Under the pieces are notes generated by a model. That model did not search any database, had not been told where the DNA came from, and saw only the letters and a program-made list of their open reading frames with translations. A stretch of DNA of 64,000 nt from Longimicrobiales bacterium. GTDB lineage: Bacteria > Gemmatimonadota > Gemmatimonadetes > Longimicrobiales > Gaopeijiaceae. The position numbers and the translations under genes were made by a program. Positions 27,984 to 48,713 of the stretch are shown piece after piece. The stretch covers positions 96,001 through 160,000 of the forward strand of contig CBDCNQ010000004.1 in assembly GCA_965219445.1 (NCBI GenBank), read 5' to 3'. Position 1 is the stretch's first letter, and the number at the start of each line of letters is the position of its first letter.

Positions 27984-29390
27984 TCAGCTGGGTTCGGGAG
28001 AGCTTCTGCTGACGGGTAATCGTACGCACATGACCGTCTCCCCGGGTTTCGACTTGACCTCGATGTGACCCTGGTGGGTCCCCACGATTCGCATCGCGAT
28101 CCCAAGGCCGAGTCCGGTGCCGACGCCGACCTCCTTGGTCGTAAAGAATGGCTCGAAGACATGGGAGCGGATCTCCTCCGGAATACCCGGCCCGTCATCG
28201 ACGACCTCGACCTCGACCCAAAGATCCTTGAGCCTCGTCTCGAGGATAAGCTCGCCACCCTCGTCCATCGCGTCGATCGCGTTGTCGATGATGTTGGTCC
28301 ATACCTGGTTGAGCTCGCCGGCGTTGGCCGGTACTAGGGGTAAGTCCTCTTGGTATTCGCGTACCAACCGGATCGACTTCTCTTTGAGCTTGTGGCTGAG
28401 CATCTGGATCGTGTTATCGAGGCCCAGACGCACGTCGGTGGGCTTGTGCTCATGGGACCGGTCCATGTGGGAGTAAGTCTTGATGGATGCGACCAGGTCG
28501 GAGATGCGTCCGGCAGCCGCCTTGATCTCCTCCACGATCCGGTCGGAATCGATTCCCCCACTCAACCACGCAAACACATCCGGTAGCGCCGCTTCGGGCA
28601 CGTCGCTGGCTACGTCCTCGAGGTCTCCGAGGCTCAGATTCGCCTCGCTGAAGGTCGCGGCCACCTCCCAGGGTTCGGCCACGCCGCGATCCTCCAACCA
28701 TGCGAGCATATCGTCCTCGCGCTCGCTGCGCTCGAGCGCCGTGGCCGTGGATACCTCACTCTGCCTGCCCAGGCTCCGAAGCTGCTCAAGCTTCACCAAT
28801 CCCTGCTCATTCACGTGGTGGCGCACGAGCGCGGTCACGAGCGCGGGAAGCTTCGCCCGGTGCTCGGAGAGCATGGAGGCCGCCCGGCGGACCGCCGCCG
28901 CCGGATTGTTCAGCTCGTGCGCAAGGCCGGCCGACAATCGCCCCAGGGCTATCATCTTTTCGCCCTGCTGTTCTAGCCGCACGTCGCCACGCACTCGATC
29001 CGACATCTGGGCCACGAGCCTACGGCCGAGCTCTGGGCTGACATCGAGCAACTGCTTGAACAGCGACGCCTCGAGTCGAAGAACCTCAGTGGGCTCCGCG
29101 GAGACCGTGTGCCGAGGATAGTGGGTCATCCTCGAGAACGGGAGCATGCCCGTTACCTTCCCTCTGACGGTGGTCGCCACGAGCAGCCACTGGCCTCCGA
29201 TCTCCTCGAAGCCCTGGATCACTCCTTTGACCACGATCCAGAGCGCGTCCGCAGGCTGACCACGATCGAACATGCGATCCCCGGACCCGAGCGTAATCCT
29301 CTCACCGTGCTCGCAGAGCCAATCCAGCTCCTCATCAGAGAGGCCCTCGAGAATGGTCAGCGGCCGTAACTCGTCCCTGATGAACTTCAT
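27984..29390 (-). CDS. Sensor histidine kinase with an N-terminal cyclic-nucleotide-binding domain
   Basis: cNMP-like N-terminus; LAHELNNP H-box, [31 protein letters not shown]. Confidence 0.93.
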
Positions 29391-29426: not shown

Positions 29427-31079
29427 TCACCGTTCGGCGAGAATCTGATGCATGAACGACACGGACACCGAACCCTCCCCCACGGCCGAGGCGACCCTCT
29501 TCACGGAATCGTGGCGGGCATCCCCGCACGCGAACACACCCGGCACGTTGGTCTCCAGCATGAAGGGCTCTCGCTCGAGGGGCCAGTCCCGAAGATGGAC
29601 CTTGGGATCCAGGTCCGGCCCCGTGAGGACAAAGCCCCGCTCGTCACATGCGACGAGCCCGTCGAGCCACTGTGTGTGCGGCGCCGCTCCAAGGAAGGCG
29701 AAGAGGTACTCCGCCGGAACAGACTCGACGGCCCCGCTCGCCTTCGAACGGAGGTCCAGACCCTCGAGCCGTGTCAATCCCTGACACTCTGCGATTTCCG
29801 TGTTGAGGCGCACCTCGATGTTTTCGGTCGACTCGATACGACGCACCAGGTAGTGTGACATCTTGGCGCTGAGCGAATCACCGCGGACCAGCATGACCAC
29901 TTTGCTCGCGTGATCCTTGAAATACATCGCTGCCTGGCCGGCCGAGTTCCCCGCGCCCACCATGAATACCGTCTGTCCGCTCGCGAGCATCGCTTCTGTC
30001 ATGGCCGCGCCGTAGTAGACGCCCGCCCCGACGAAACGATCGGCGTTCTCTGCTGGGAGCAGCGTCCAGGACACGCCCACGGAGAGCATGAGGACGTGGC
30101 AGGAGAGCTCGGATCCATCGGCCATTGTCAGATATTTGTAGGGACCGTCGATCCGGAGTCCGACAGCCTCCTGGGGCGTGAGGACCTCGACACCGAACCT
30201 GCGGGCCTGGGCCACAGCGCGGCGGGCCAGGTCGCCCCCCGACAGCCCCGAAGGGAACCCTAGATAGTTTTCGATATAACTGCTCGTACCCGCCTGCCCT
30301 CCCGGTGCCTCCCTCTCAATGAGGACCGTCCGAAGGCCCTCCGATCCACCGTACACGGCCGAGGCGAGTCCGCCCGGACCCGCTCCGACGATCACCAGGT
30401 CATAGAAATCCTTCTTCGCTTTTGTCTCGAGTCCGATATGCTCCGCGAGGGTCGTCGGGTCGGGCCTGATGAGCCGCTCCCCGCCTGGCAGAATGACCAG
30501 AGGCAACTCCTCCGTGTCAACCGAGTCGCCAAGCTCACGGGCCTCCTCCGAGGTTTCGATGTCGAGGAATTGGTATGGAACCTGATTCCGGGCGAGGAAA
30601 TCCCTCACGGAATGACAGCGCGCCGACCACCGATCCCCAACCACACGCAGCCCGCCGTACCCCGGCCGATAGGACGCCCGCCACTCCTCCAACATGTCGT
30701 CGAGCACCGGGAAGAGCTTCTCTTCCGGAGGATCCCACGGCTTCACCAGGTAATAATGGACCTGAGACTGGTTTATTGCGGCGATCGCCGCCTCCGTGTC
30801 TGCATAGGCGGTGATCACGACGCGCTTGGCTTTCGGATAATCTTCCGCGGCCCGGGAGAGGAAGGTCACCCCATCCATCCCGGGCATTCGTTGGTCCGAA
30901 AGGAGCAGGGCTACCGGCGTACCCCTCTCCTTCAATTCACGTAGAACCTCCAGGGCAGCCACGCCCGATTCGGCACGCAATACGCGGAAGTCCTGTCCAT
31001 ACTTGGTGCGCAGGTCTCGGGCGATCGCGTTCAGGACGTCGCTGTCGTCATCGACAGCGAGAAGGATTGGCTTGGCCAT
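29427..31079 (-). CDS. Response-regulator receiver / thioredoxin-reductase-like FAD oxidoreductase fusion
   Basis: LAVDDD, LSDQRMP and KPW (receiver); VIVGAGPGG, GAGNSAGQAA, GVFACGDAR. Confidence 0.92.
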   Translation of the reverse strand: MAKPILLAVDDDSDVLNAIARDLRTKYGQDFRVLRAESGVAALEVLRELKERGTPVALLLSDQRMPGMDGVTFLSRAAEDYPKAKRVVITAYADTEAAIAAINQSQVHYYLVKPWDPPEEKLFPVLDDMLEEWRASYRPGYGGLRVVGDRWSARCHSVRDFLARNQVPYQFLDIETSEEARELGDSVDTEELPLVILPGGERLIRPDPTTLAEHIGLETKAKKDFYDLVIVGAGPGGLASAVYGGSEGLRTVLIEREAPGGQAGTSSYIENYLGFPSGLSGGDLARRAVAQARRFGVEVLTPQEAVGLRIDGPYKYLTMADGSELSCHVLMLSVGVSWTLLPAENADRFVGAGVYYGAAMTEAMLASGQTVFMVGAGNSAGQAAMYFKDHASKVVMLVRGDSLSAKMSHYLVRRIESTENIEVRLNTEIAECQGLTRLEGLDLRSKASGAVESVPAEYLFAFLGAAPHTQWLDGLVACDERGFVLTGPDLDPKVHLRDWPLEREPFMLETNVPGVFACGDARHDSVKRVASAVGEGSVSVSFMHQILAER

Positions 31080-31120
31080 GGGGGGCAAGCTGTCGATTTA
31101 AGCCGGTGCCGGGCAAGGGG

Positions 31121-32044
31121 CTAGTCTTCCAGCCGGGAGCCCGGCGTCGCATCCCCGTCCTCGAGACCGAGCGCCCACCGGATCCCGCCCACCACGTGGG
31201 CCCGAAAGGTCGGATTGGTACTCCAGATGTCGTCACGGTGGCCGAGCGCCGTATAAAATGAGCGACCATTGCCGAAATCCTGTACCCAGGACTGAGGATA
31301 GTCGCCGCCCTGCTCGATCTCCTCGAGCCCCTCGAGGTCCGTCGCACGCGTGTCGATGCTCAGCAGAACACGAACCCGATCCCGAGAGAAGCCCAGGGGA
31401 ATCCGGTTGCCGAACAGTACGTCGACGTTCTCATCGGGTCTGTCGGCGCTCCACGCCGCGGTGCCGAACTGATAGAACTCGTCGACCACGGTCCAGCTCC
31501 CGCCCAACATCCTTGTCGCCGGATGTTGGCGGTCTTCGACGTTCAGGACGAAGACGTGGTTCTGCTGCACCGCGCGCCTGAAGTACGCACCGAGCATCTC
31601 ACCGAAGTCGGGATAGTTGTAAAGCGTCAGCGCCGCGCAGTGAACGCCGATGAACGCACCCCCCTGCCTCACGAAGTCCACGAGCGCCCGCTTCTGCACC
31701 TCGTCGAGCGGCAGGTTTCCGTTGGTCATCATCATCACGCCATCGAACTGAGCGAGGTACTCCGCCGTGATGATCGACAAATCGAGCTCCTCGCGCTCCT
31801 GCAGGTAGCCCTGAAGGGCGGTAAGCTCGTAGCCGGCGTCCGGTCCCCATGATGCGACAGCCCGCTCCGCGGGACCGAGGCTCGTGTGCTTGTAGAGCCC
31901 CGCGTGGGTCAGGAAGAGAAGCTTCTTCGGCGTTTGTTGTTCCGGCGCGGCGACCCGACTCGGCTCTGTGACTCGGGCCCCCGACGACGAGACCAACCCG
32001 ACAGTGCAGATGGCGATCAGTCCGGCACTCATCGCAGCGCGCAT
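31121..32044 (-). CDS. Secreted ThuA-domain protein
   Basis: Signal peptide, YKHTS, GGAFIGVHCA, DEFY, GRSFYTALGH. Confidence 0.85.
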   Translation of the reverse strand: MRAAMSAGLIAICTVGLVSSSGARVTEPSRVAAPEQQTPKKLLFLTHAGLYKHTSLGPAERAVASWGPDAGYELTALQGYLQEREELDLSIITAEYLAQFDGVMMMTNGNLPLDEVQKRALVDFVRQGGAFIGVHCAALTLYNYPDFGEMLGAYFRRAVQQNHVFVLNVEDRQHPATRMLGGSWTVVDEFYQFGTAAWSADRPDENVDVLFGNRIPLGFSRDRVRVLLSIDTRATDLEGLEEIEQGGDYPQSWVQDFGNGRSFYTALGHRDDIWSTNPTFRAHVVGGIRWALGLEDGDATPGSRLED

Positions 32045-32163
32045 GAATTTCTCCTCGATTGGGCTCCGACGTGGACGACAACCGAGGTCTTAAGATGTGG
32101 AGTCGGGCGGGAAACGCCAGCACGAGAGGGGCTGAAGCGCTATCGGGGTCGTGGAGCCGTTCC

Positions 32164-32739
32164 TCAGCCCCCGGGGCCGGCCTCCTTCAGCGCGCCATAC
32201 CGGACCTGAAACGCCGCGGCTACCCTGGCGTCGGGCTGAATGTGGCCGCGCACCGTCCACCGGATGTCCGTGTAATCCTCCGGACTAGCGGGACGTTGCT
32301 CGGTTCGGCCGTCGACGACCACCTCGACCATGGGCTGTTCGGAGTAGGACGTGCCGCCGTCCAATGAGAACTCCACGTCGACATCTTCGCGGTCCGCGCC
32401 GGCCGTGCCTGGTAGGTAGTGCATGCCTTCCGGCAGAGGGTCGTTGAATTGGATGTTACTGACCGGACTTCCCGTGATATTGGTGAATACGAGCCGATAC
32501 TCCACCACATCTCCCGACACGATGGTATTGGGGTCTCGCTCCGGGGCGTCGACCGTCTGAGGGCGCGCGTCTCCCCATGTGAGGATCGTCGCCGAGACGA
32601 CCAAGGCCTGGGGCTCCCTCTCCTCCTGGGCCGCCGCGGATCCGCCCGCCAAGGCGAAAAGCATCGCGAGCCACAAGGCGCTCCGTAGGACCTTCAATCT
32701 TCCTCCTGAACGATTTCGGTGTTCGTCCGGCTTCGACAT
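32164..32739 (-). CDS. Small exported single-DUF11-domain protein
   Basis: Signal peptide (SAAA|Q); GDVVEYRLVFTN...NDPLPEGMHY...VEFSLDGG...YTDIRWT...FQVR. Confidence 0.85.
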   Translation of the reverse strand: MSKPDEHRNRSGGRLKVLRSALWLAMLFALAGGSAAAQEEREPQALVVSATILTWGDARPQTVDAPERDPNTIVSGDVVEYRLVFTNITGSPVSNIQFNDPLPEGMHYLPGTAGADREDVDVEFSLDGGTSYSEQPMVEVVVDGRTEQRPASPEDYTDIRWTVRGHIQPDARVAAAFQVRYGALKEAGPGG

Positions 32740-33259
32740 CGGGACGACTCCTGATCAACTGTTTCCACCCCAACCACCCCGAAAACTCAAGCCCGGTGAG
32801 GCCATTCTCCCGAGCCCACCCGGACCCCCGGGCTGCCTCTCGTACGTGAGGCAAGGTCCGTGCCCCACCCCACTCGTCGCTCGCCAGTAGGCACTGGAGG
32901 CCACTGACAACGCTCGCACGAAGCCGACGAACGTTCAATGGCGAGGCCCACCAAGGATGATCCAGACCCGGAAAATTTTTCCTCCTTCGGCCACAAAATG
33001 CCCACAGCACAATTTACCGATTTCTGTCCCTTAGGGCCCCAAAAAATGACGAATTTCGGGCCCTCCCGACCCCGTATAAGCGCCCCTCCTAAATTCGTGT
33101 AAATAGTTGTCAATAAACGTCTTAAGTAGACAAAAAACATATGGTTATAAGGTGTTCTCGGCTTTGGCACCTGAGCGGTCCACACCTTGCAAAAAAAAGG
33201 GCAACGACATTCACATGCGCCCGCGAGGAGGCGGGCGAACGACGGAGGAGAGAACGGAA
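32740..33259. promoter_or_regulatory. AT-rich divergent intergenic control region of the DUF11 locus
   Basis: 520-bp gap between divergent genes; visibly AT-rich at ~32970-33200 with several A-tracts; GGAGGAG RBS before 33260. Confidence 0.55.
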
Positions 33260-34506
33260 ATGAAAACGCACTCGAACCTGGCATCTCGAGTCTTGGGGAT
33301 GCTAGCGATAGTAGCGGCGGTCGGCTGGCTTCAGCCTACCGCGGTCTACGGCCAGACGGCCGAAGGCGTAGTCATCACCAACCGCGCCACGGTCACATTC
33401 ACCGACGCGAACAGCAACGCTTACTCGTCCGTGTTTGACGAGGTAGACGTGACGGTTGGCCACAGTGCCGGCATCGACGTGGTGGCGGCACAGGCCACGG
33501 CCACGCCGATCTCGCCGAGCGCAAACAACACGCTGGACTTCACGGTCAACAACATCGGAAACGGCCCCGACAGCGTGACCGTCGCCGAGAGCAACACGGA
33601 CCCCACGGTCCTGACGGTGACGAAGTACACCTACAACCTCACGGACTACGCGAGTCTCGCCTTGCTGAACACGGCGCTGGCGGGGGTCTCCATCGCAGCC
33701 GGAGGCAATGTGGCGATCACGGTCGAGTACTCCATCGCGGCGGGTAAGGGCGGCGAGCCGTCGACCTACACGCTGACGGGTACCTCGCGCCGCGACGGTA
33801 GCGCGACGGACAACGACAACACGGTCGTAACCCCAGCGCTCACGGGCACCGTGGTCACGACGCCGGACGGCGGGCAGAGCCTCACACATCTGCCGAGTAA
33901 CGGCACGAACTACACGTTCCAGTTCACCGTGACGAACAACCAGACCGGAGCGGAGCGGACGACTTCGACCTGCTCGCAACGAGCCCCGGCTCGGCGGTCA
34001 TCACCATCGTGTCGGTGGACGGGTTCGCGGGAGACAGCACCCGGGTGAACATCGCGGCGTCGGCTTCACCGACGTTCGACGTGATCTACTCCGTGGCCGA
34101 CGTGGCCGCCGGAACCCCCGACACGCTCTACCTGGAAGCCCGCTCCGTAACCACCCCGGCTACGACGGATTCCGGCTTCGCCGACATGTCGGTCATCAAG
34201 GCGGCCATGAGCATCACGAAGGCGGCGTACCGGGATAACCAGGTCACGCTCCTCGGCGGCGGCGACACCGTGCTGCCGGGTGAGTTCATCCAGTACCTAG
34301 TCACCGTCACGAACACCGGAACGGCCGACGCGTCCATCGTGCATGTGGACGACCTGTTACCGGCTGAGCTGACGTACGATTCAGCGACAGGGGACTTGGC
34401 GGGCTGGACCTTTACGCCGTCGGGCAACGACTTGGATGCCGATCTAGCCGGCACCCTCGCTCCCGCTGCCAGCCGATTCTTCTGGATCCGGGTGCAGGTG
34501 AACTAG
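33260..34506 (+). pseudogene. Secreted DUF11 protein (candidate major pilin), frameshifted by a 5-bp duplication
   Basis: Signal peptide, then QTAEGVVITNRATVTF. Removing one CGGAG at 33946-33955 joins ORFs 33107..34048 and 34009..34506 (QTGADDFDLL). C-terminal DUF11 reads ITKA...YLVTVTNTG...DDLLP. Confidence 0.85.
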
Positions 34507-34515
34507 CCAGTACCC

Positions 34516-37500
34516 ATGGAATTCCGTACTTACCTTCGTCGTTGCCTCAGGCAGGCCTCCCTGGACCTTCGGGTCCGGGGAGTCGCGTCCTGGGTGCGTT
34601 GGATCGCCGTCGCGGCGGTCCTTCTCGGCGGAGTCGTAGAAGTGCGCGCCACCGGCACACCCGCCGGTACTCTAGTTACCGCGCGCGCGTCTGTGTCCTA
34701 CACTGGTCCCAACGGCACCCCGGGGAACGTAATGTCTCCCGATGCCATGGTCATGATCGGCCAGGTCGCCGGTGTAGACGTAGAGCCTCCCCGCTCGAGC
34801 CTGGGAGCCGCCGGGACGAGCGTCATTTTCCCCCACACCCTCACCAACGTCGGAAACGGTTCCGACACTTTCGTCCTCACGGCCACGTCTCTCGACGGCT
34901 GGCCGATTCGTATGGTGCTAGACGTCAACGGCAGTGGCACCGAGGATGTGGGCGATACGCCCATCGTAGGGCCTGTCGCCCTGAACGCCGACGCAGTGGC
35001 TCAAATCCTGGTCGTCCTGGACATCCCCTTGGCGGCCCCGGTCAGGGCTCCGCAGCCCGCGGTAACTCTTACCGCCACGTCGCAATTCGACGCTGGTGTG
35101 ACCGACTCGCTGACCGACGACCTAGGGGTCACTCCGCCCGTCCCGACCGTAACGCTTAACAAGACCGTGGACGTCGCATCGGCGGTGGCCGGTGACATCC
35201 TCACCTACACCATCACGTATACAGCGTCGGCACTCGGTTCGAACGACCTCACGATCCAAGACACGATTCCCGCGGGGCTGAGCTACGAGGCCGGTACCCT
35301 GCGCTTGGATACACAGGCCCTCACGGACGTCTCCGGAGACGACGAGGGCCACTACGACCCCACGCCCGGCGTCATCGTCGTCACGGTCCCCGCCGCCGCT
35401 ATCCAGCCAGTGGACAGCGTCTCCTTCCAGGTGCGCGTTCTTCCGGTGCGCACCAGTACCATGATGCAGAACATGGCCGTCGCATCCTCCGGGACCGCCA
35501 GCGACGTCTCGAACGTTTCGCAGACGCTCATCGTCGGCCCCGACCTCACGCTGGAGAAGACGGTTCAAGGGCCCAACCCTGCCCGATCCGGCGACCAGCT
35601 CGTCTACCGCGTCGCGCTGACGAACGATGCCAGCGGCGGACTCGCCGAAGCCGCGCTCGTCACGGACACAGTTCCCGCGGGATTGGAAATCGTGGACGCA
35701 GGGCCGGGCGCCACCGTAGACGGTAACGTGGTCACGTGGGCCTTCGGCGACGTCAACGCCGCCGAGCAGGTCGAGGCTTCGCTCCAGGTGCAGGTCGCTG
35801 CGACCATCCCAGATACCCTTTCGGTGGTGAACGTGGCCAACCTGTCTCTGATGGGACAGCCCCACATGGCGGCGTCCGCCCCTTCGGTCCTTCTGTTGGG
35901 CACTGCGGGAGATATCCTGGCTCTCGACCTCCGCGGTGAGACGCTCGAAGCTCAGCTAGGCGAACCGGTCTACCTCAGCTTCACAGTGGAGAACCGGAGC
36001 AACCTGAACGTCACCGATGTCGGGGTGAGGATCGACATCCCCAGCGGCCTGGCTTTCTCGAGGTCTCTCCAGGAGGTGGACTCGATTCAGACCCAGCCCG
36101 GGCAGGTCACTCTGTATCTCGGGCCCCTCGCCGCAGGCGGCACCCTGGAGGGCCAAGCAGCCTTCGCGCTCGTATCCGCGCTCCCGGGCACCATGGTCAT
36201 CTCGGCGATGGCGTTTGGCCACGTCGGGTCCGTGGCGATGAGCGGCCCGGCACCGCTGGTGGCCGCCCTCACAAGCGGCACGACACCCGTGGGCGCCACG
36301 GCTGCCCTCTCGCACGGCGGCTCTCCGGCCGGTTTCGACGTCCGCTCCGCCCAGCAGCAGATCTTCGTGGGCATCCGGGCAGGCACGCCCCTCGAGACCA
36401 GGACGGTCATCGGGAAGATTTGGATCGACGAGGACGGAAACGGCCGACAGGACGGCGGCGAGCTCGGCGTGCACGGAGTGGCCGTCTGGAACGAATCCGG
36501 GGACGTGTCCTCGTCGGACAGCGAAGGGAAGCTGTCGTTCCGGAACGTGAGGCCAGGAGCCCACACCTTCCGGGTGGATCGCTCGACCCTACCCGTGGCG
36601 CTGCGCGTGAACCCCGAGGGCGACGACGGATTCGCGTCGCTCCATTTAAACGGATGGGCTTCGGGTCGGATTTCCTTCGGGCTGGTCCCTCGGGGTGCAA
36701 GACTCGTGGACTTCCAGGTCCAAACCGAGGATGAGGCCGCCAGCGGGGTCATGAGGCTGGCGGACTACCAGCTCGAGACCGAGAGCGCAGCCACCAATGC
36801 CGGGCTCTCTAGCCTCGAAGCGCCCGCCCCCGACGCCATCGTGCAGAGTGAGCTGGTGTTGGAGCCCCACCGAGCTGGTTGGCCCGAGGTGGCCTATCCG
36901 ATCCCGGAGGGCTGGCTTCCGCTACCCGCCTCGGCTCGCCTGGGCGACACGCCTGTCGACGACCCCGAAATTCGCGTGGACCGGGACGGCTCCGCCTGGA
37001 TGTTCTGGACGCTGGACGGCCTCCGTGAGCCCCTCCACGTGACGTTGGAGCCGGAGAGCGCGGTGCGGAGCGCGGAGACCGTGACGCTCCCGGCCCTCCG
37101 CTCCGCCGAGGACCGGTCCAGGGACGGTGGCTCAGGGATCATCACTGGCCCCGGAGTTGCGCTGATCGCGCCTGTCGACGGCGCCGTGCTGGGCAGTGAC
37201 CGCGTCTACGTTGGCGCACTTGGTGAGCCCGGCGCCCAGGCCACCCTTTTCTCGGGTGATTCCATCCTGGCGGAGAGCGTGATCCGGATAGACGGCCAGG
37301 TGGACTTCATCGGCGTCGGACTGCAGCGTGGGACCAACCGCCTCCGGGTACGCATGGTCAACTCCTGGAACCTCGAGCGGTGGGACAGCCTGGACGTCCA
37401 CGTGACGAGCGTCCCCGCGTCCTTCGCGCCCGTGGCCGACACGATCGCTCTCCCGGCGGACGGCGTCACCATTCGGGAGACGAGAGTCCGCGTCCTGGAC

Positions 37501-40158
37501 GCCTGGGATGTCCCTGTGGTCAACAGCCCGTTCGTCACCGTGTCCACCGGACTGGCCGAAGTGGTCGATCTCGACAAAGACCCCTCCTCGGTCGGCCGGC
37601 AGCTTCTGCCCGCCTCCGACGGATGGCTGACCATCCGGATCCGCGCCAGCTCCGAGGTCTCCTTGGACGTACTGGCCCTCCAGGCCGGCGAGGCAACCGG
37701 AGAAGTGGCCCTTCAACACGTACCGAAGGCAAGGGAGCTCATGATCACCAGCATGGGGCAGTACGGCCTGGGCGCCGCACCGGACGACTTCGGTGCCATC
37801 ACCGTGCGGGGGCGCCTGGGCGCAGAGACTGGCGTGACTCTCTCCTACGACAGTCGCGCTCTGGACGCCGGGCGCGACGCGTACGGCAGGACGATCAGCC
37901 CGCTGGACGAGGCCCAGTATCCGATCCTCGGCGACGCCTCCGTGCGCCGGAGCGAGGCAGACATGCGGCCCGGCCTCTCCGCCCGCATCGAGCGTGGAAC
38001 GGACTGGATCGCCGCCGGTGAGTTGGCGAACATGGGATTCGGTACCAGCCTCACGCTGGCCCAATACCGCCGGGCCCTCCCCGGCGTGGCGGCAAACGTC
38101 CGCACGGGTCCCGTGACCTGGAGCGGGTTTGGTGCCATGACCTCCCAGAGCCTCCGCCAGGTCCAGATCCGCGGTGCCGGCATCTCCGGCCCGTACGACT
38201 TGGGCACGGGCATCGTGCCGGGTACGGAGCGGGTCAGCGTGGAGACCCGAGCCTTGGACAATCCGGAACGCAGCCTCCGGCTCCAGACCCTCCAGCAACT
38301 CGCGGACTACCAGATCGACTACGCGACGGGCACTCTGCTCCTCAAGACCCCGGTGCCCTCGGTGGACCTGAACAACAATCCGATCTTCCTCGTCGTGGAC
38401 TTCGAGTCGGACGGGGGCGGCAAGTCGCAGTCCGTGTGGGGTCTTCGCGCCGAGACCGACTTCGGGATCCCTCTGGGGCTCTCGGTCGTGCAGGACAGAG
38501 CCGAAGGCCAGACCTTCGGAATGCTGGGCGCAGACGTGCGGGTTCGCGCGCCGAACGGGTCCGAGCTGGCCGCCGAGGTGGCCTACACCGAAAACCCCGA
38601 CTCGGCGGGGGTGGCCTTCCTCATGTCCGGCCAGGGGAACCTATTGGGCGGCGCGGTGGGACTGACAGGCCAGTGGATGCATGTGGCCAACCGATTCAGT
38701 AATCCATCGAATATCGGGCTGCAGGCCGTCGACGAGTTCGAGGTGGGGACCCAACTGCGGGCCGCCGGCAACGAGCTCCAAGTGGGCCACAGCCGCCAGA
38801 GGTTCGCGGCAAGCGGAATCGAGCGGCGCACCACGGATGCGCGGGTCGTCAGCTCCCCCGTCATGGGAGTCTCACTCACCGCGGGCTTCACCGACCAGGC
38901 CGTCTCCAACGGCAACGTGCTCGGTGGGGCGTCGCGGGCCGGACGCTTGGAGCTCGCATGGCAGCCAACCTCCAGGGTCCGGCTCTGGTCGGAAGCCCAA
39001 AACTCATTCCTCCAGGATCCGGGCGCGGGCCTCGGAGATTTCATCGGTGGCGGAGCGTCCTTGGCCTTGCTCGAACAGTTCTCGCTGGAGGGCCGCCATC
39101 TGCGAATGCAGGGTGACCCTAACGGCGATTACTCCATCACGCGCTTCGGCCTGCAGTCCCGCTTGGAGCGTGGGACCCGGGCCTGGGGCTCGTACGAGAT
39201 CGCGGGTGGCGTGGACCATCAGACCAACGCCGCGGTCGTGGGTCTCAATCAGCAGATACGCCTGGGGCAGTCCTGGACCGTCAACGCTATGATGGAGCGC
39301 CGTGTGGGCCTCGAACGGGCCGCGCTCTCCGATCCGCTCCGGGCCGCCCCCTTCACCCAGCAGGAGGAGGACTACTGGTCGGCCGGACTGAACCTCGAGC
39401 TTCTCCCTCAGGACGGTCCCTACAGCGCGAGCGCCCAGCTGGAGCGAAGGACCGGAGCGGTGCGCTCCAGCGACCTGGCGAACTTGGCGGCGGACATCAC
39501 GTTCAACCGCAGCCTGGCGATCCTTTCCCGGGGAACCTACAACCGTGTCCAGGACGTAAGCACCGGCCTGCCGACGCAGCGGACCGCTTCAGGCCTCTTC
39601 GGCCTGGCCCTCCGACCCGCGGGCAATGATGCGGTGAATGCCCTCCTGAAGCTGGAGTGGCAGCGGGACGAAAATCGGCCCCAGCAGAACGTCTTTGGGA
39701 GGATGGGCTTGGAGTCTCGGCTCATCGGGGCCGCAGAGGTCATCCTGAGTCCGCTGGCGAGAGTCGAGCTGGGAGGCCGATACGCCGTGCGAAGCACCAA
39801 CTTCGTCGTCGGTGCCCAGGCCCCGCTCACCTCCCTCGCTCATTACGTGGGCTCCCGAGCCAATCTGGGACTCACGTCCTGGCTCGGCGTCGGGGGAGAA
39901 GGCCGGCTCCTAGTAGAAGGTACCAGCGGCGAGATGCGGTGGGACGTCGCTCCTGTCATGAAGCTCACCCCTGTAAACGAGTTAGAGATCGCCGGCGGGT
40001 ACCGCTTCGGCGACCTGCTCGACCCCGACTTCGCCTCCAACGGAGGCCAGGGCTGGTTCGTCACCTTCCAACTTCGCGTCACCGAGGACAACCCGATCGT
40101 GGACTACTGGCGGAATCGGATGCGCTCGACGATGGCGAGGCGAGGAGATACACCATGA
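34516..40158 (+). CDS. Large DUF11-repeat protein with an SdrD-B-like domain and a long C-terminal predicted outer-membrane beta-barrel
   Basis: Signal peptide; two clear DUF11 domains; GKIWIDEDGNGRQDGGE; ~800 C-terminal aa of amphipathic beta strands ending GWFVTFQLRV. Confidence 0.8.
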   Translation: MEFRTYLRRCLRQASLDLRVRGVASWVRWIAVAAVLLGGVVEVRATGTPAGTLVTARASVSYTGPNGTPGNVMSPDAMVMIGQVAGVDVEPPRSSLGAAGTSVIFPHTLTNVGNGSDTFVLTATSLDGWPIRMVLDVNGSGTEDVGDTPIVGPVALNADAVAQILVVLDIPLAAPVRAPQPAVTLTATSQFDAGVTDSLTDDLGVTPPVPTVTLNKTVDVASAVAGDILTYTITYTASALGSNDLTIQDTIPAGLSYEAGTLRLDTQALTDVSGDDEGHYDPTPGVIVVTVPAAAIQPVDSVSFQVRVLPVRTSTMMQNMAVASSGTASDVSNVSQTLIVGPDLTLEKTVQGPNPARSGDQLVYRVALTNDASGGLAEAALVTDTVPAGLEIVDAGPGATVDGNVVTWAFGDVNAAEQVEASLQVQVAATIPDTLSVVNVANLSLMGQPHMAASAPSVLLLGTAGDILALDLRGETLEAQLGEPVYLSFTVENRSNLNVTDVGVRIDIPSGLAFSRSLQEVDSIQTQPGQVTLYLGPLAAGGTLEGQAAFALVSALPGTMVISAMAFGHVGSVAMSGPAPLVAALTSGTTPVGATAALSHGGSPAGFDVRSAQQQIFVGIRAGTPLETRTVIGKIWIDEDGNGRQDGGELGVHGVAVWNESGDVSSSDSEGKLSFRNVRPGAHTFRVDRSTLPVALRVNPEGDDGFASLHLNGWASGRISFGLVPRGARLVDFQVQTEDEAASGVMRLADYQLETESAATNAGLSSLEAPAPDAIVQSELVLEPHRAGWPEVAYPIPEGWLPLPASARLGDTPVDDPEIRVDRDGSAWMFWTLDGLREPLHVTLEPESAVRSAETVTLPALRSAEDRSRDGGSGIITGPGVALIAPVDGAVLGSDRVYVGALGEPGAQATLFSGDSILAESVIRIDGQVDFIGVGLQRGTNRLRVRMVNSWNLERWDSLDVHVTSVPASFAPVADTIALPADGVTIRETRVRVLDAWDVPVVNSPFVTVSTGLAEVVDLDKDPSSVGRQLLPASDGWLTIRIRASSEVSLDVLALQAGEATGEVALQHVPKARELMITSMGQYGLGAAPDDFGAITVRGRLGAETGVTLSYDSRALDAGRDAYGRTISPLDEAQYPILGDASVRRSEADMRPGLSARIERGTDWIAAGELANMGFGTSLTLAQYRRALPGVAANVRTGPVTWSGFGAMTSQSLRQVQIRGAGISGPYDLGTGIVPGTERVSVETRALDNPERSLRLQTLQQLADYQIDYATGTLLLKTPVPSVDLNNNPIFLVVDFESDGGGKSQSVWGLRAETDFGIPLGLSVVQDRAEGQTFGMLGADVRVRAPNGSELAAEVAYTENPDSAGVAFLMSGQGNLLGGAVGLTGQWMHVANRFSNPSNIGLQAVDEFEVGTQLRAAGNELQVGHSRQRFAASGIERRTTDARVVSSPVMGVSLTAGFTDQAVSNGNVLGGASRAGRLELAWQPTSRVRLWSEAQNSFLQDPGAGLGDFIGGGASLALLEQFSLEGRHLRMQGDPNGDYSITRFGLQSRLERGTRAWGSYEIAGGVDHQTNAAVVGLNQQIRLGQSWTVNAMMERRVGLERAALSDPLRAAPFTQQEEDYWSAGLNLELLPQDGPYSASAQLERRTGAVRSSDLANLAADITFNRSLAILSRGTYNRVQDVSTGLPTQRTASGLFGLALRPAGNDAVNALLKLEWQRDENRPQQNVFGRMGLESRLIGAAEVILSPLARVELGGRYAVRSTNFVVGAQAPLTSLAHYVGSRANLGLTSWLGVGGEGRLLVEGTSGEMRWDVAPVMKLTPVNELEIAGGYRFGDLLDPDFASNGGQGWFVTFQLRVTEDNPIVDYWRNRMRSTMARRGDTP

Positions 40159-43100
40159 GTCGCCTCCGCCTTGCACTCGCGCACCTGAGCGCGAGCACGC
40201 TGTTCTGGAGCCACGCCCTCGTAGTGGCGGCCGGCATCTTGGTTCCTGCGAAGCCCGCACAGGCGCAGAGCCCTGAGAATCGCTTCGCGGGTGCCGGCGT
40301 CAGTGAGGGTGCCGAGGAGATGCCCTGGATCCTCCCAGGCAACATAACCGCTGATGATGGCGCCGAAGCCACCATCTCGAATTATGACTCCGACGAATTC
40401 GAGAGGACGCTTCGGTCCCACACCTACGGCTTCACGATCCCGGGCGGCGCGACGATCGACGGGATCGAGGTGATCGTTGGACGACGAAACAACAATAGCC
40501 CCGGGGTGGCCGATAACGTCATTCGACTGGCCAAGGCAGGAGTTGCTGTCGGTGCTAACAAATCTACCGGCGTCGTATGGCCCACGGTGGAGGCACCCAT
40601 TACGTATGGTACCCCAACCGATCTTTGGGGCACGACCTGGACACCGGCCGAGATCAACGCCGGCGGATTCGGTCTCACGCTCAATCCGCTCAACACCGGT
40701 AATGCCGAAAACGCAGCGGTCGATTACCACCGGATCATCGTTTACTACACCACTGCCGAAACGATCCTCCTGGTGGTACCGGACGCGGCGAGCCTGGGCG
40801 CGCAGGACGCCGCGAAGAAGACGTTGATCGAATCCTGGGGCTACACCGTTACGCCAATCTCGGCAAACGACACTCAGGCCAACTTCGACGCCGCCGTGGC
40901 AGCTTCTGACGCCGTCTATGTCTCCGAAGAGATCTCCTCCGCCGACCTAAACACGAAGCTCACATCAGCGACGATCGGGCTCGTCCTCGAAGAGGGCTCT
41001 CTCTCGGATGAGTTCGGGTTTTCGACGGGCAAGCTGAACTACACAGACTCTGCGATCGACATTACGGACAACACCCATTACATCACCTCAGCCTTCAGCA
41101 CGGGATCGCTGACCATCGCGTCCCCGGCTCAGGACCTCCACTACCTCGACGGGACGATCGCTGCAGGTGCGCACGTCCTCGCAGAGCAGCTCGCCACAGC
41201 GAATAGGACACTGGTCGTGCTTGACGTCGGTGCGGCGCTGGAGCCTGCGGGTACGGCCGCAGGACGTCGCGTCATCTTACCGTGGGGTCCTGATGCATTC
41301 GATATCAACTCGCTCACCGTCGACGGGCAGACCTTGATGCGCAGGGCTATCGAGTGGGCGACAGGATTGGGAACAGATTCGACGCCGCCGGACGCCGTTG
41401 CGAACCTTGCCACCGGAACGGTGACGGCGTCCTCCATTGACCTGTCCTAGACGGCCCCCGGCGACGACGGAGCCACCGGGACCGCGACCACCTACGACGT
41501 TCGTTACTCCACGAGCACGATCACCGCGGGCAACTGGGCCTCAGCCACGCAGGCGAGCGGAGAGCCGGCGCCGTCGGTAGCAGGCAGCGCCGAGACGTTC
41601 ACCGTGACGGGGCTCAGCGCGAGCACTACCTACTTCTTTGCGATCAAGACCTCGGACGAGATCCCGAACGAGAGCGTGATCTCTAACGTGCCGAGCGCCG
41701 CGACCGCGTCGCCCGCCACGTTGCTGGCCCGATACTGGATGGAAGAGGCGTCGAGCGGTCAGGCGCCAACACAGTTGCTCGACGACCAGGCGAGCCCCTT
41801 GAACCTGCCCATCACCTATGACGGGGCGAACTACAGCTACACGGTCCTCCCCACAGGACGGGGTTGGGAGTCGACGACCACAAACAACGACGGGCGGGCA
41901 TCTACGTTGGTTAACGGTACAAAGCTTCAAACGACCCTCGATGGCGCCACGGCGACCACTATCGAGGTCGTGTTGGCGATTGATGCCCTTAGCACTAGTC
42001 AGAGTCGCATCTTCCACATCGGCGATGGCTCGGAGTCCGGCTACCTGACCCTTTCATCCCCCAATGCAACTACACTCTTCTTCTACGCGCTTGGGACAAC
42101 TCTCCGAGGCCAATGGAACCCGGGATTCGATGGAACTCGAGCAGTATTCCATTTGGTTTACGACTCCGCGGAGCCGACGGCCGGGGACCGAGTGCGGCTG
42201 TACAAGAACGGCGTGCTCCAAGCCTCGACCGGTGGGACCGATCCGCCGCTGAACGAGACGATCAGCATCCCCAATGGCAAGTACTTCGCCATTGCGAACC
42301 GTGAGGTCGGCGTCCGGTCGTTCGATGGGAGCATCTACTATGCGGCCGTCTACGACGGCGCCCTCACAGCCTCGGAAGTCTCGACTAACTCCACCGCCCT
42401 GCTGGCCAGCGACGACAGCGGACTTGATTCTACACCGCCGGACGCGATCACAGACCTCGCCACCGGAACAGTGAGGTCGACGAGCCAGCAGTTGAGCTGG
42501 ACCGCGCCCGGCGACGACGCAGCCACCGGGACCGCGACCAGCTACGATATCCGCTACTCGACGAGCACGATCACCGAGGGCAACTGGGCCGCCGCCACGC
42601 AAGCGACCGGAGAGCCTTCGCCGCAGGTCGCGGGCAGCAGCGAGACGTTCACGGTCACGGGGCTGAGCGGCAGCACCACGTACTTTTTCGCGATCAAGAC
42701 CTCGGACGAAGTCCCGAACGAATCAGCGATCTCAAACGTGCCGAGCGCCACGACAGACCTGGACGGTATGACGCAGACCGGCTTCGCCTGGTCGGACGAC
42801 GTAGCGACCTTCACATCGAAGGGTGATGACGTGACGTTGGATGCGGCACAAGGGACGACCTACATCGTCGGGATCCAGGTTGCGATGACCCAGGGGGCCG
42901 CCAGCAATAGTTGGGTGCTCCAGGTGCGCGAAGACGGCGCGGGCTCGTGGCTCGACGTGTTCCAGCTGGGCGGCGGCGAGAGTCAGGTGTGGGAGACGGA
43001 TTCGTCCCACAACTTCAGCAAGGGGAACGGTGACGTCGTCTCGACCGGAGAATTCGGCAACGGCACGGCCCCCACGTACTTCACGGCTGTCGACGGTGAG

Positions 43101-46100
43101 TTCTCGGACGACAACAACGGCCTCGGCGACGGCTACACCGGCCCCGACGTCTACACTGAGCTCCAGTATGCTGTGAGGGCTTCGGGCTTGAGCGACGGCC
43201 ACACCTACGAGTTCAGGGTAACGTACAACGGGTCACCGCTGGACCTGTACAGCACGTACGCGACCGTCGCCGATCCGGGCACGCCGGACGCTGTCTCGGA
43301 CCTCGCCACCGGAACGCTCACCTCGTCGAGCGTACAGCTGACCTGGACCGCACCCGGAGACAACGGGGCCACCGGGACCGCGTCCACCTATGACGTCCGC
43401 TACTCCACGAGCGTCATCAACGACGGTAACTGGGCCTCCGCCACGCAGGCGACCGGAGAGCCTGCGCCGCAGGTCGGGGGCAGTGCCGAGACGTTTACCG
43501 TCACGGGGCTCAACTCGAGCACCACGTATTACTTCGCGATCAAGACCTCGGACGAGGTCCCGAACGAGTCAGCGCTCTCCAACGTTCCGAGCGCCACGAC
43601 GTTGAACGGCGCGCCGACAGTGGTTGCGGCGATCGCGGACACCTCGGTGGTCGAGGACAACCCACCGGTCGACAACTATCGCGATCTAAAGGCTGTGTTC
43701 ACCGACTTCGAGGATGGCTCGGCGCTCACCTTCACGATCCAGACCAACACCAATCCGGGTCTGGTCACGCCGACCATCGGCGCCGACAGCGCCTTGGATC
43801 TGAGCTTCACCGCCAGTCTCAATGGTGCGGCAACGATCACCGTCCGCGCCACCGATAGTGGCGCGCTGTTCGTGGACGATGTCTTCACGGTCACCGTCCT
43901 GGATACGACGCCGCCAGATGCCGTCGCGGACCTAGCCACCGGAACGGTGACAGCGTCGAGCGTGGACCTGTCCTGGACTGCGCCTGGAGACGACGGGGCC
44001 ACCGGCACCGCGACCACGTACGACGTCCGGTACTCGACGAGCGTAATCAACGACGGCAACTGGGCCTCGGCCACGCAGGCAACGGGAGAGCCCGCCCCGC
44101 AGGTTGCGGGTAGCTCGGAGACATTCACGGTCACGGGGCTCAACTCGACCACGACCTACTACTTCGCGATCAAGACGTCGGACGAGGTTCCGAACGAATC
44201 AGCGCTCTCCAACGTGCCGAGCGCCACGACACTGAACGGCCCGCCGACGGTAGCCGCGGCGATCGCAGACACAACCGTGAATGGGGACAACCCCCCCGTC
44301 GACAACTATCGCGATCTCAAGGCCGTGTTCACTGACTTCGAGGATGGCTCGGCGCTCACCTACACGATCCAGGGCAACACCAATCCGGGCCTGATCACGC
44401 CGACCATCGGTGCCGACAGCGCCCTTGATCTGAGTTTCACCGCCGGCATCAACGGTGCCGCAACGATCACGGTCCGGGCCACCGACAGCGGTGCCCTGTT
44501 CGTGGATGATGTCTTCACGGTCACGGTACTGGATACGCATGCGCCGGAGGCCATCACCAATCTTGCCACCGGATCGGTCTCGTCGTCGAGTGTGCAGCTC
44601 ACCTGGACCGCTCCCGGAGACGATGGAGCCACCGGGACGGCGACGACCTATGACGTCCGCTACTCGACGAGCACGATCACGGAGGGCAACTGGGCCTCCG
44701 CCACGCAGGCGAGCGGAGAGCCTTCGCCCCAGGCCGCGGGCAGCGGTGAGTCGTTCACGGTGACGGGGCTCAGCCAGGGCACCACATACCATTTCGCGAT
44801 CAAGACTTCGGACGAGGTCCCGAACCAGAGCGCGATCTCCAACGTGCCGAGCGTCGCGACGATCGTCTCGGCCAGCGTGACGTACCAGACGGGCGACGGT
44901 AAGGGGAGTGTCTCCGAGGCCGACGATGCGAAGCTCATCGATGGTGGGTCTGCGGACACGAACTATGGCACTACGACCGACCTGGAGATTGATTCAGGCG
45001 ATAAACACAGTGTCATAAAGTTCCCCAATATTTTCGGTGGCGGCGCCGACCAGATCCCCCTGAACTCCGTGATCGTCAGCGCCACGTTGACCCTGCAAGT
45101 GTTCGACCAGGGAGACGATCCTCTGGTGTACCAGCTCATAGAGGGTTGGGTGGAGAGCCAGGTCACCTACAACGACCGAATCACCGGCGTGGGTTGGTCG
45201 AACCCGGGCGCCGGCGGAACGGGCTCGCACAAAGCGACAGCCGATGGCAGCCTGCCGGCAGGATCGACGGGCAGCAGAAGCGTCGACGTGAGCACCAGCG
45301 TACAGAACTGGTCCGATGGAGAGGTGAATGAGGGGTGGGTGCTCGAGGACACGGGTTCCGGTGGCGTGGACATTCGGACGAGTGAGTATGCAACCGTTGC
45401 TCAACGGCCCATGCTCTCGGTGACTTACCTCCCGGGTGGTGACCAGACGGCGCCGAACACCGTTACGAACCTAGCCACCGGAACCGTGACGGCGACGACC
45501 GTGGACTTGTCGTGGACCGCGCCCGGCGACGATGGAGCCAGCGGGACGGCGACCAGCTACGACATTCGCTACTCGACGAGCACGATCACCGAGGGCAACT
45601 GGGCCTCTGCCACGCAGGCGACCGGAGAGCCTTCGCCGCAGGTCGCGGGCAGCGCCGAGGGGTTCACGGTTACGGGCCTGAGCAGCGACATCACGTACTA
45701 CTTCGCGATCAAGACCTCGGACGAGATCCCTAACGAATCAGCGATCTCGAACGTGCCGAGCGCGGCGACACCGGACGTCACGGCGCCCGACGCCATCACG
45801 GACTTGGCTACCGGGACGGTGACGACGTCGAGCGTGGACCTGTCCTGGACCGCACCTGGAGACGACGGGGCCACCGGGACGGCGACCACCTACGACGTCC
45901 GCTACTCCACGAGCACGATCAACGACGGCAACTGGGCGTCCGCGACGCTGGCCACAGGTGAGCCAGCACCGCAGGCCGCGGGAAGCAGTGAGTCGTTCAC
46001 GGTCACGGGGCTCAGCGCGAGCACTACGTACTTCTTCGCGATCAAGACCTCGGACGAGGTCCCGAACGAATCAGCGCTCTCCAACGTGCCGAGCGCCGCG

Positions 46101-48713
46101 ACGTCCTCGAACATCCCCACCTTCGCAAGTGGAGGTCAGAAGTTACACGTCGGCCAGCCGCCGGTCCCCATCAGGCTGATGACCATTACCGACGCGACGG
46201 GAGCGGGCACGTTCACCGACGCCAACGACCTGCGGATCCGGATCCCTGCCACGTTCAACATGATCTGGGACACGTTGGACGTCGACGCGACAATCGGCGG
46301 CGGCGCCAGCGCCAAGGTGAGCTCTACGGTGAGCTACGAGGATGCCGGAAAGACGCTGGTCCCGAATGTGCTGACCGACTTCCTGGCCTCAGAGCAGTTC
46401 ACCGTCGCGGATCTGAGCTTCATGTCCTTCACGGCAGTCTCGGCGGCAGACAAGCTGGAGCTCGAGGTCTATAACGACGACGTGGTCACGACCGAGGATA
46501 CCGCCAACAAGGAGATCATCGTCGGCCCCAGCATCTCATCTCGCACCAACCAGACCTTCATGGTGAGCGATCCGGCGACGCTCGCGGACACGATCACCAT
46601 TACCGAGTCTCCGACGGATCCGGTGATAACGACGGGCGACGACATCCGTATTCGCATTCCCACGGGCTTCAACATGGTCTGGGATGCTACGGTCACGAGC
46701 GTCACCCTCGGCGGAGGTGCAGCGGGTAACGTGAGCACGACGCTGCTGCCTTACGAGGATGGGAACAAGACTGCGGTGCTTGATGTCACAGGCAACTTTG
46801 CAGTAAGCGATGTAATCACAGTCGTCGGTCTGACCTTCACGACCTTCAGCGGCGTCTCCGCAGCCGACAGCTTGGAGTTGGAGCTCGAGGACGACGGCGT
46901 GGTCTCGGCCGAAGATGACAAGACGATCGAGATCATCCCGCTCAATACGACCCCCACGGTGGCGGCGGCCATCCCCGACACTACGGTGGCTGAGAATAGC
47001 TCGCCGATCGATAACTATCGCGATCTCAACGCGGTGTTTACGGACGTGGAGGACCTCTCACAGCTCACGTACACGATCCAAAGCAACACGAATCCCGGCC
47101 TGATCACGCCGACCATCGACGCCGACAGCGCCTTGGATCTGAGCTTCACCGCCAGCACAACGGGTAGCGCGACGATCACAGTGCGAGCCACAGACAGCGG
47201 TGCATTGTTCGTGGACGATGTCTTCACGGTGTCAGTCAGCGCCCCCGCGGCATTGGTGGGTCGCTACTGGTTGAACGAAGCACCCTCCGGGCAAGTGCCC
47301 ACCACGGTGTACGACGATCAAGCGAGCCCCCTCAATCTCAGTGTGACCTACGACGCGAACATGGCATGGACCCTGAACAACGGCCATCGTGGGCTAACGT
47401 CCTCGGTCGTGCACGCGGGGATCGCCTCGGCGAACGCGGCAGGCACGAAGTACGTGACCAATCTTGACGGAGCGACCCAGGCCACGTTCGTCACGGTGAT
47501 GGAGTGGGGTGCCGGAAACGCCGACCGTATGGCCGGTTTCCAGGAGAGCGACGGCACCCGCGTTTTCCAGTTGATGACCAAGAGCGGCGGCGACATAGAG
47601 TTGCGATATCGTGCCCAAGTGGAGTACACGAGGATGTATTGGCCGGGCACGTGGGACGATGGCGTGCGGCGTGTCTTCCACGCCGTCTACGATTCCGACG
47701 ATGCCACCCTGAACGATCGGGTCCGGCTGTATGTGAACGGTGTCGATCAGGGGACGCCGACCCTCATTAGCGGCAACATGCCCCCGGTTTCTGATGGGCT
47801 GGACTTCGGCGCCGCGACGGTCGAGCTGGCGGTAATGAACGAGTCGGACCTCAGCAACGGCCTCCCGGGCAGCGTCTTCTACTACGCCGTCCATACCGGG
47901 GAAATGACCGACGGGGAAATCTCCACCGAGGCCACCGCGCTTCTGGCCGACGACGACAACATCACCTATACCGTCGCCGTCACGCCCGATGGGGTCGATA
48001 CGCTGAAGGTGCTCCCGAGCAACGGAACTTCATATTCCTACAAGCTCACGATCGACAACACCTCGAGCGTGATCGAGGACTTCGGCCTTTTCGGCTTCCC
48101 CGGCGACGTGTCCACCTTCCTCACCGTCGACTCGATCGTCGGGCCTAGCGTTACCGCAGGGGCGACCGCAGACAGCGCGTCGATCGCGGGCATCCCCGCC
48201 AGTACCGTTGACAGCGCGTTCGTGTGGTACAGCGTGGCCAACGTCGCAGCCGGTACTCTGGACTCTCTGTACGTCGAGGCCCGCTCGTTTAGCAGTAGCG
48301 CCGTGGCTGACACGGGTTGGGTTTTCATAGAGGTCGTGAAGCCCAACCTCACCGTTGGTAAGGCCGTCACTCCGAACGGCACGCAGCTGCCGGGCACCGA
48401 CCTGACCTACACCGTCACCATTACCAACGACGGCACCGATGACGCCGCCAGCGTGGTCGTGCTGGACTCGGTGCCGGCAGAGCTCGACTTCAAGGTGGGC
48501 AGCGTCGTGAACAGCCTACCGGTCACGGCCACGGTGGAGTATTCGAACGACGCGGGCAGCTCGTGGACCTATGTACCGGTATCGGCGGGGTGCGGGGCGC
48601 CTGCGACCTACGACGCGTGCGTGACCCACATTCGCTGGACGCTGGACACACACCTCAGCTATGTGGGGCCGAACAACACGGGTGACGTCGAGTTCGTGGC
48701 TCGAATCCAGTAG
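40155..48713 (+). CDS. Giant (~2850-codon) multidomain surface adhesin with one in-frame TAG at 41448-41450
   Basis: ATGA overlap with the upstream gene; signal peptide; 7 FN3 repeats, 2 LamG-like, 3 cadherin-like, a DNRLRE-like domain and a C-terminal DUF11. The frame continues past the stop (DLS*TAPGDDG). Confidence 0.82.
41377..46103 (+). repeat. Seven highly similar ~330-bp fibronectin type III coding repeats
   Basis: WTAPGD[DN]..TGTA..YD.RYSTS...YFAIKTSDE.PN starting near 41377, 42426, 43281, 43902, 44532, 45441 and 45774. Confidence 0.92.

Follow-up and report, generated by a model that had tools for sequence, protein, structure and literature searches.

A CLIPPER (DUF11) isopeptide domain divided between the two ends of an Ig-like shaft protein of Gemmatimonadota suggests a self-locking surface fibre

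The window analysed here, a 64,000-nt stretch of DNA from a Longimicrobiales bacterium, carries a damaged copy of a gene whose intact relatives, on balance, probably build a surface fibre from a split CLIPPER domain, with subunits joined head-to-tail and covalently locked. We propose that a divided CLIPPER (DUF11) isopeptide domain would supply both ends of an exported shaft subunit, the start of the subunit corresponding to the last two strands of the domain (a hairpin with the Asn) and its end to the first seven strands (with the Lys and the Asp). The terminal domain of each subunit would be completed by the hairpin of its more proximal neighbour, and the rebuilt core would then form a Lys-Asn isopeptide bond with the Asp as catalyst, losing ammonia and needing no enzyme. 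The fibre would run from an adhesin (acceptor only) at the tip through copies of the shaft to the outer membrane, where a barrel protein (donor only) would form the base; a small Lys-less protein may hold the hairpins until assembly. The parts of this proposal differ in strength. Complementation in trans, between chains, is very likely because the tip adhesins are acceptor only and the barrels donor only; a covalent Lys-Asn bond between the chains is likely, and many shaft copies per fibre are slightly less so. That the shaft is exported, and what the barrel and the small protein do, we infer from the sequences. We observed directly which residues are present and how well they are conserved, where the domain is cut, which genes belong to the set and what lesions this genome carries; the features concerned are the following.

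32164..32739, minus strand: small, secreted-looking, stand-alone DUF11-like protein of 191 aa, acceptor-type, no Lys at the bonding position
33260..34048, plus strand: 5′ piece of the shaft gene (leader, donor hairpin, Ig domain 1, start of domain 2, out-of-frame tail)
33260-33352, plus strand: signal-peptide-like leader of the shaft, by sequence pattern
33353..33461, plus strand: putative N-terminal donor hairpin (last two CLIPPER strands), with the candidate isopeptide Asn, AAC 33380-33382 (VITNRAT)
33946..33955, plus strand: 5-base tandem duplication (CGGAG twice), the shaft frameshift
33961..34506, plus strand: 3′ piece of the shaft gene (remaining domain 2 and acceptor), signal peptide absent from the frame
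34192..34503, plus strand: putative C-terminal acceptor, a CLIPPER/DUF11 domain (PF01345) minus its last two strands, with Lys, AAG 34219-34221 (SITKAAY), and Asp, GAC 34351-34353 (VHVDDLLP)
34516..40158, plus strand: intact gene of the barrel protein, 1880 aa (donor hairpin, Ig, two K-D-N CLIPPER domains, SdrD_B, C-terminal beta-barrel)
34651-34762, plus strand: putative donor hairpin of the barrel protein, with Ala for Asn at 34681-34683 (VTARASV)
~37726-40155, plus strand: large predicted C-terminal beta-barrel
40155..48713, plus strand: candidate tip-adhesin gene, 2852 codons (fn3, LamG, CBM96), with an internal TAG at 41448-41450
48333-48710, plus strand: putative acceptor domain of the adhesin, hairpin absent, with Lys, AAG 48360-48362, and Asp, 48465-48467 (LDSVP)

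The codons of the three shaft residues, read from the window, all lie where the initial annotation had placed them. Its picture of one shaft protein with an N-terminal Asn and a C-terminal Lys and Asp turned out to hold for the homologues but not for this genome, in which the Asn is encoded in the ORF 33260-34048 and the Lys and Asp in a different frame, 33961-34506; the donor, moreover, is a two-strand hairpin and not the single strand that had been assumed. The shaft gene spans 1247 nt, leaving a remainder of 2 modulo 3 because CGGAG is duplicated; without these 5 bases it would comprise 413 codons. Its 5′ piece is 79-89% identical to intact homologues and the locus is single-copy in this genome; no sigma-70-type promoter match was found near the shaft. 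A contig from run X1, which may itself be the source sample, matched the window from 32000 to 41612 with zero differences, and a contig from run X2, a different sample of the same study, matched 33745-34262, again with zero differences, while a divergent contig in X3, from a relative, has 5 bases fewer at the duplication site. The frameshift is thus probably a real lesion, an assembly error being disfavoured by the identical letters in contigs of two runs.

The adhesin gene is disrupted as well. Six other matches to the same fn3 motif have a Trp at the position of the TAG, which is also present in the X1 contig and is thus backed by one run only, possibly the source. Amber recoding seems unlikely: TAG terminates the shaft gene here, and the other repeats carry Trp. 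In all, the adhesin contains seven matches to this fn3-type repeat motif besides LamG and CBM96, and in its N-terminal region it shows no relation to the adhesin of G001. With both shaft and adhesin disrupted, the triad cannot form as encoded in this genome and the fibre system is most likely inactive here. This copy is therefore a poor test object, and intact orthologues suit better.

Intact orthologues are ~410 aa long and spread across Gemmatimonadota, the phylum to which the names in the homologue database also belong; leads to an occurrence outside it came from Atlas feature neighbours only. Among 61 genomes searched, 8 others had a near full-length open-frame match of 411-474 aa, and a full-length, stop-free shaft was found in 20 of 300 genomes of the phylum. 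A strong barrel match accompanied the shaft in 20/20 of those genomes and occurred in two more genomes with partial shaft matches, where we assume that shaft and barrel were counted over the same 300-genome sample, since the handles agree. We aligned 116 full-length proteins, picked by length and coverage out of 268 (49 and 67 from two sets). As the initial annotation had expected of such an alignment, Lys, Asp and Asn are conserved together, the full triad being present in 112/116 homologues at 34-84% identity (Asn41 in 113, Lys320 in 115 and Asp364 in all 116); Asn is replaced by Ser in three proteins and Lys is absent in one. In a closer set of 119 sequences Lys320 is invariant (119/119), whereas four other Lys positions of the mature chain are occupied in 27-73, but several further Asn and Asp positions are conserved equally to those of the triad, so conservation by itself does not single it out.

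In the shaft, the Asn lies ~280 residues upstream of the Lys and Asp of the terminal domain. The predicted model of the orthologue P0001 (pLDDT 92.8) consists of a two-strand hairpin at 38-65 (strands 38-45 and 58-65), two Ig domains and a terminal domain of seven strands. The last strand, FWIRVxVN/K, closes the shaft chains, which carry no C-terminal LPxTG sorting signal; in 112/116 of them the chain stops one residue past that strand. All three triad residues appear to occupy alternating, hydrophobic-facing strand positions, and neither Lys nor Asn is conserved on the corresponding strands of the two middle Ig domains. The pLDDT of about 90 over the hairpin in this single-chain model could reflect self-complementation, in which case the hairpin would fold into the acceptor of its own chain and give a cyclised monomer or a small ring but no fibre. 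We regard this as very improbable: acceptor-only adhesins, like donor-only barrels, lack a partner within their own chain, and three Ig domains with short linkers would presumably have to close the ring.

That the hairpin would complete the terminal domain of another chain is suggested by the way in which the CLIPPER domain is divided. DUF11 domains have been described as CLIPPER, a CnaA-like Ig fold, and in the solved structure 9IFR the bond joins Lys715 and Asn806, with Asp748 as presumed catalyst; supplements of the same paper list DUF11 domains without a bond, which may bear on the reading of the shaft (PMC12617251). The C-terminal piece of the shaft matched PF01345 with 44.2 bits (curated cut-off 24.6) over positions 11-84 of the 114 of the profile only, and the family profile matches only residues 11-72 of the 9IFR chain. 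The precomputed Pfam assignment of shaft homologues is likewise PF01345. In Pfam and NCBIfam scans covering eight proteins of the window, the shaft pieces matched DUF11-related families only, if a single unrelated match below threshold in each collection is set aside, and the TasA (camelysin) family was matched in neither. Fold searches with the shaft model returned generic Ig chains as well as 9IFR, which scored Z 9.4 against domain 1; no filament of the family with a solved structure was among the matches, and a single-sequence PDB search with the shaft gave none.

A profile of the shaft hairpin yielded 117 matches in 8 of 28 long proteins, against none in shuffled copies, and 116 of the 117 directly follow a match to the Lys/Asp acceptor that starts ~98 residues earlier. 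An intact tandem repeat with matches to both halves of the shaft could be aligned to 9IFR (E 2.5e-4); its K, D and N fall at positions 10, 44 and 101 of the chain, of which 10 and 101 are Lys715 and Asn806, the residues of the solved bond; the register of the Lys and the Asn thus comes via this repeat and that of the Asp directly from the shaft. Counting chain A from position 10 as Lys715, the aligned Asp is residue 749, against Asp748 in the paper. A permuted profile recovered 34 intact domains in 13 proteins, with D in 34/34, N in 33/34 and K in 22/25 ungapped domains. K, D and N are not united in one contiguous domain in the shaft, and within the locus only the two internal domains of the barrel protein have them so. 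The initial annotation had proposed that the Lys/Asp and Asn parts act between subunits; homologues, tandem CLIPPER repeats and the 9IFR register speak for this arrangement, corrected to a hairpin as the donor, and at the sequence level strongly indicate that the N-terminal extension completes the incomplete Ig fold. Mean-field coupling over 194 shafts and a test against contacts from the 34 intact domains gave no donor-acceptor signal in these shallow alignments (4 of the top 400 pairs, p 0.2-0.5, Meff about 110-120).

Eight giant proteins (P0178, P0239, P0207, P0260, P0217, P0254, P0228 and P0200) have up to ~20 tandem intact CLIPPER repeats, and their last hairpin has the DANGNxY turn of the shaft. 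They are possibly single-chain ancestors or relatives of the shaft.

The adhesin would supply the acceptor without the donor. Its C-terminus had been said to contain the Lys and the Asp but no Asn strand; the codons are in place and the protein ends without a hairpin. The same was found in the donor-less adhesin tails from 16 loci and the window, which have the Lys in 10/10 and an acid in 10/10 (nine Asp, one Glu) and no hairpin at the end; two further adhesins fell under the threshold. At L023 2837-7022, two different adhesin genes stand in tandem, which suggests interchangeable tips.

The small protein resembles an acceptor without the bonding Lys. It matched DUF11 families only (PF01345 weakly, TIGR01451 with 42 bits) and no PapD-type chaperone, and the Lys of the bonding position is absent in 15/15 homologues, two false rows having been dropped. 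Its gene adjoins the shaft gene in most loci, and the protein is a candidate for a non-covalent cap or chaperone of donor hairpins. The common gene order is adhesin, small gene, shaft and barrel, while in this genome the small gene, which is divergent, is followed by shaft, barrel and adhesin. Further on, at lower coordinates, the window contains what we take, from sequence motifs, to be a haloalkane-dehalogenase-like ORF (25763-26647), a sensor kinase (27984-29390) and a response-regulator/thioredoxin-reductase fusion (29427-31088), all apparently unrelated to the fibre system. The locus looks unstable or decaying in this genus: G005, available as one contig, has the small gene (L031 7940-8626) but no shaft or barrel match, and the barrel gene of G007 (L027 4815-11421) lies in two frames, which may be a sequencing error. 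G007 also has an ORF at L027 1880-2341 that we presume to be transposase-like from a motif. In one other locus, at L034 12368-13309, an extra 313-aa donor-plus-acceptor subunit lies between shaft and barrel.

In the barrel proteins the hairpin comes first and the barrel last. Both complete K/D/N DUF11 domains that had been reported in the barrel protein of the window were found (K216/D249/N319 and K348/D384/N439), as was the Ala on its donor strand. The conclusion drawn from this Ala, a non-covalent link at the base, agrees with the absence of Asn from 4/4 barrels of the same genus but is not general, as 64 of 94 scorable barrels overall have the Asn, and so do 5/5 from the sister family; judging from these sequences, Ala is a lineage trait. 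The start of the hairpin could be scored in 94 of 120 barrel homologues, 78 with the common start and 16 with a second form; 26 were unscorable (mostly truncated calls). The common start carries Asn in 49, Ser in 12, Ala in 10 and another residue in 7, a count that includes a few shaft-barrel fusions, and the second form carries Asn in 15/16. With 30/94 scorable barrels lacking the Asn, some links must hold without a bond.

This raises the alternative that donor-hairpin complementation is non-covalent throughout, with K, D and N kept as an inherited CLIPPER core and the bond between chains rare or absent. It would accommodate the replaced Asn in the three shafts and these 30 barrels, and the fusion P0122, which lost K and N alike; BsaA N35A oligomers, moreover, withstand unheated SDS (PMC11580942), and the unengineered RrgA hairpin split reacts slowly (PMC8878318). 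Still, without a bond it would be hard to explain why a buried Lys persists in 115/116 shafts and 10/10 tips yet is missing from the small protein and from the middle domains, and we consider this alternative improbable.

Natural fusions join the same parts within single chains. P0283 and P0122 fuse the shaft acceptor to a barrel-type hairpin within ~ten residues, P0283 retaining K but not N and P0122 having neither. In P0356 and P0390 the barrel protein carries the Asn hairpin and the two Ig domains of the shaft but not the shaft acceptor. P0389 was rejected as a true fusion, since the leader of the barrel is retained, which indicates a lost stop. In a model of the last 810 residues of the barrel protein, built from 65 sequences (pLDDT 75.5), we counted 38-39 long strands; a small domain is inserted near 150-230. 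Structural matches were generic outer-membrane barrels only, with rmsd mostly of 10-25 Å and no close solved relative; FimD reached Z 9.8 at an rmsd of 17 Å, tied with unrelated porins, and no usher family was among the Pfam and NCBIfam matches at E 0.1. The usher barrel of chaperone-usher systems has 24 strands and the SprA barrel 36; if 37726-40155 forms one closed barrel, it would have more strands than SprA. The protein may serve as a pore or an usher.

The same covalent split chemistry might instead build a short modular tether, with an adhesin, one or a few shafts and the barrel as an anchor or display pore, and not a long pilus. Such a tether would fit P0283, in which the entire shaft is fused to the barrel, P0356 and P0390, which put the shaft hairpin and Ig domains straight on the barrel protein, the great length that some adhesins already have (2852 codons here) and a barrel without a usher family match or a close structural match. 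We think it unlikely, though less so than the two preceding alternatives: the shaft bears both halves, which permits an unlimited homopolymer, it is conserved as a unit of ~410 aa whereas the tips vary, and a dedicated small partner gene travels with it.

The proposed head-to-tail fibre shares features with several known systems. The CLIPPER of 9IFR belongs to the same family as the shaft and has the same K/D/N register, CnaA-like Ig fold and adhesin-stalk context, but its triad sits in one domain of one chain, whereas in the shaft family the last two strands stand at the start of another protein or of the next one; the main text uses neither "donor" nor "strand complementation" (PMC12617251). 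A precedent for strand donation with an enzyme-free Lys-Asn lock exists in BsaA of Clostridium perfringens (TasA family), in which donor-strand exchange is locked autocatalytically by N35-K74-E56, as shown by mutants. There too, an N-terminal donor Asn meets an acceptor Lys and an acid in an enzyme-free "exchange and lock", but the protein is of a different family, SipW-dependent and Gram-positive, and the available part of this account mentions no outer-membrane barrel, CLIPPER domain or hairpin donor (PMC11580942). The shaft family has Asp in place of the Glu of BsaA on the acceptor. DogTag/DogCatcher, an engineered split of RrgA domain 4 that reacts in trans, likewise places the Asn on a beta-hairpin tag and the Lys and acid on the catcher and undergoes spontaneous transamidation; it is a man-made cut of a different domain, whereas the cut in the shaft is natural and puts tag and catcher at opposite ends of the subunit (PMC8878318).

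Chaperone-usher pili (Fim/Pap) also combine a tip adhesin, a shaft, a small partner and an outer-membrane barrel in one operon, and their N-terminal extension completes the Ig fold of a neighbour, as proposed for the shaft, but they are non-covalent, donate a single strand and use a PapD chaperone, whereas here there was no usher or PapD match and the model has 38-39 strands (PMC11821415, PMC9715654). The archaeal thread Saci_0406 (PMC9715654) and A-ENA sporesilk (PMC13111695) have inter-subunit isopeptide bonds without a sortase, though neither uses a split Lys-Asp-Asn Cna triad: the former joins Asn57 to the N-terminal amine of subunit n+2, and the latter is made of alpha-helical hairpins. 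Sortase-assembled pili need the LPxTG that the shafts lack. TLP-1 fibrils (PMC11494351), the single-chain DUF11 hooks of Litorilinea GhlA and tafi (DUF1102) were considered and set aside as different from a split CLIPPER.

A natural hairpin split of CLIPPER across tip, shaft and barrel is apparently undescribed in the literature searched. The full-text search, with most subscription papers outside its scope, returned no split-DUF11/CLIPPER, barrel-anchored pilus, and a 2026 review mentions neither DUF11 nor CLIPPER in its first 300,000 characters. We suggest tentatively, and with less confidence than the fibre itself, that these loci represent an undescribed class of two-membrane pilus with an enzyme-free split-CLIPPER lock and a Lys-less chaperone, threaded through a ~38-strand barrel and ended by that barrel's own hairpin, the two halves forming a natural orthogonal tag/catcher pair.

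If the proposal is true, a self-crosslinking domain would have been cut at a loop and its two halves put in the opposite order, which would have turned a single-chain adhesin stalk into a polymer. Two-membrane bacteria would then have a covalent, sortase-free pilus, many unannotated DUF11 operons would gain a function, and a CLIPPER-based tag/catcher pair would become available.
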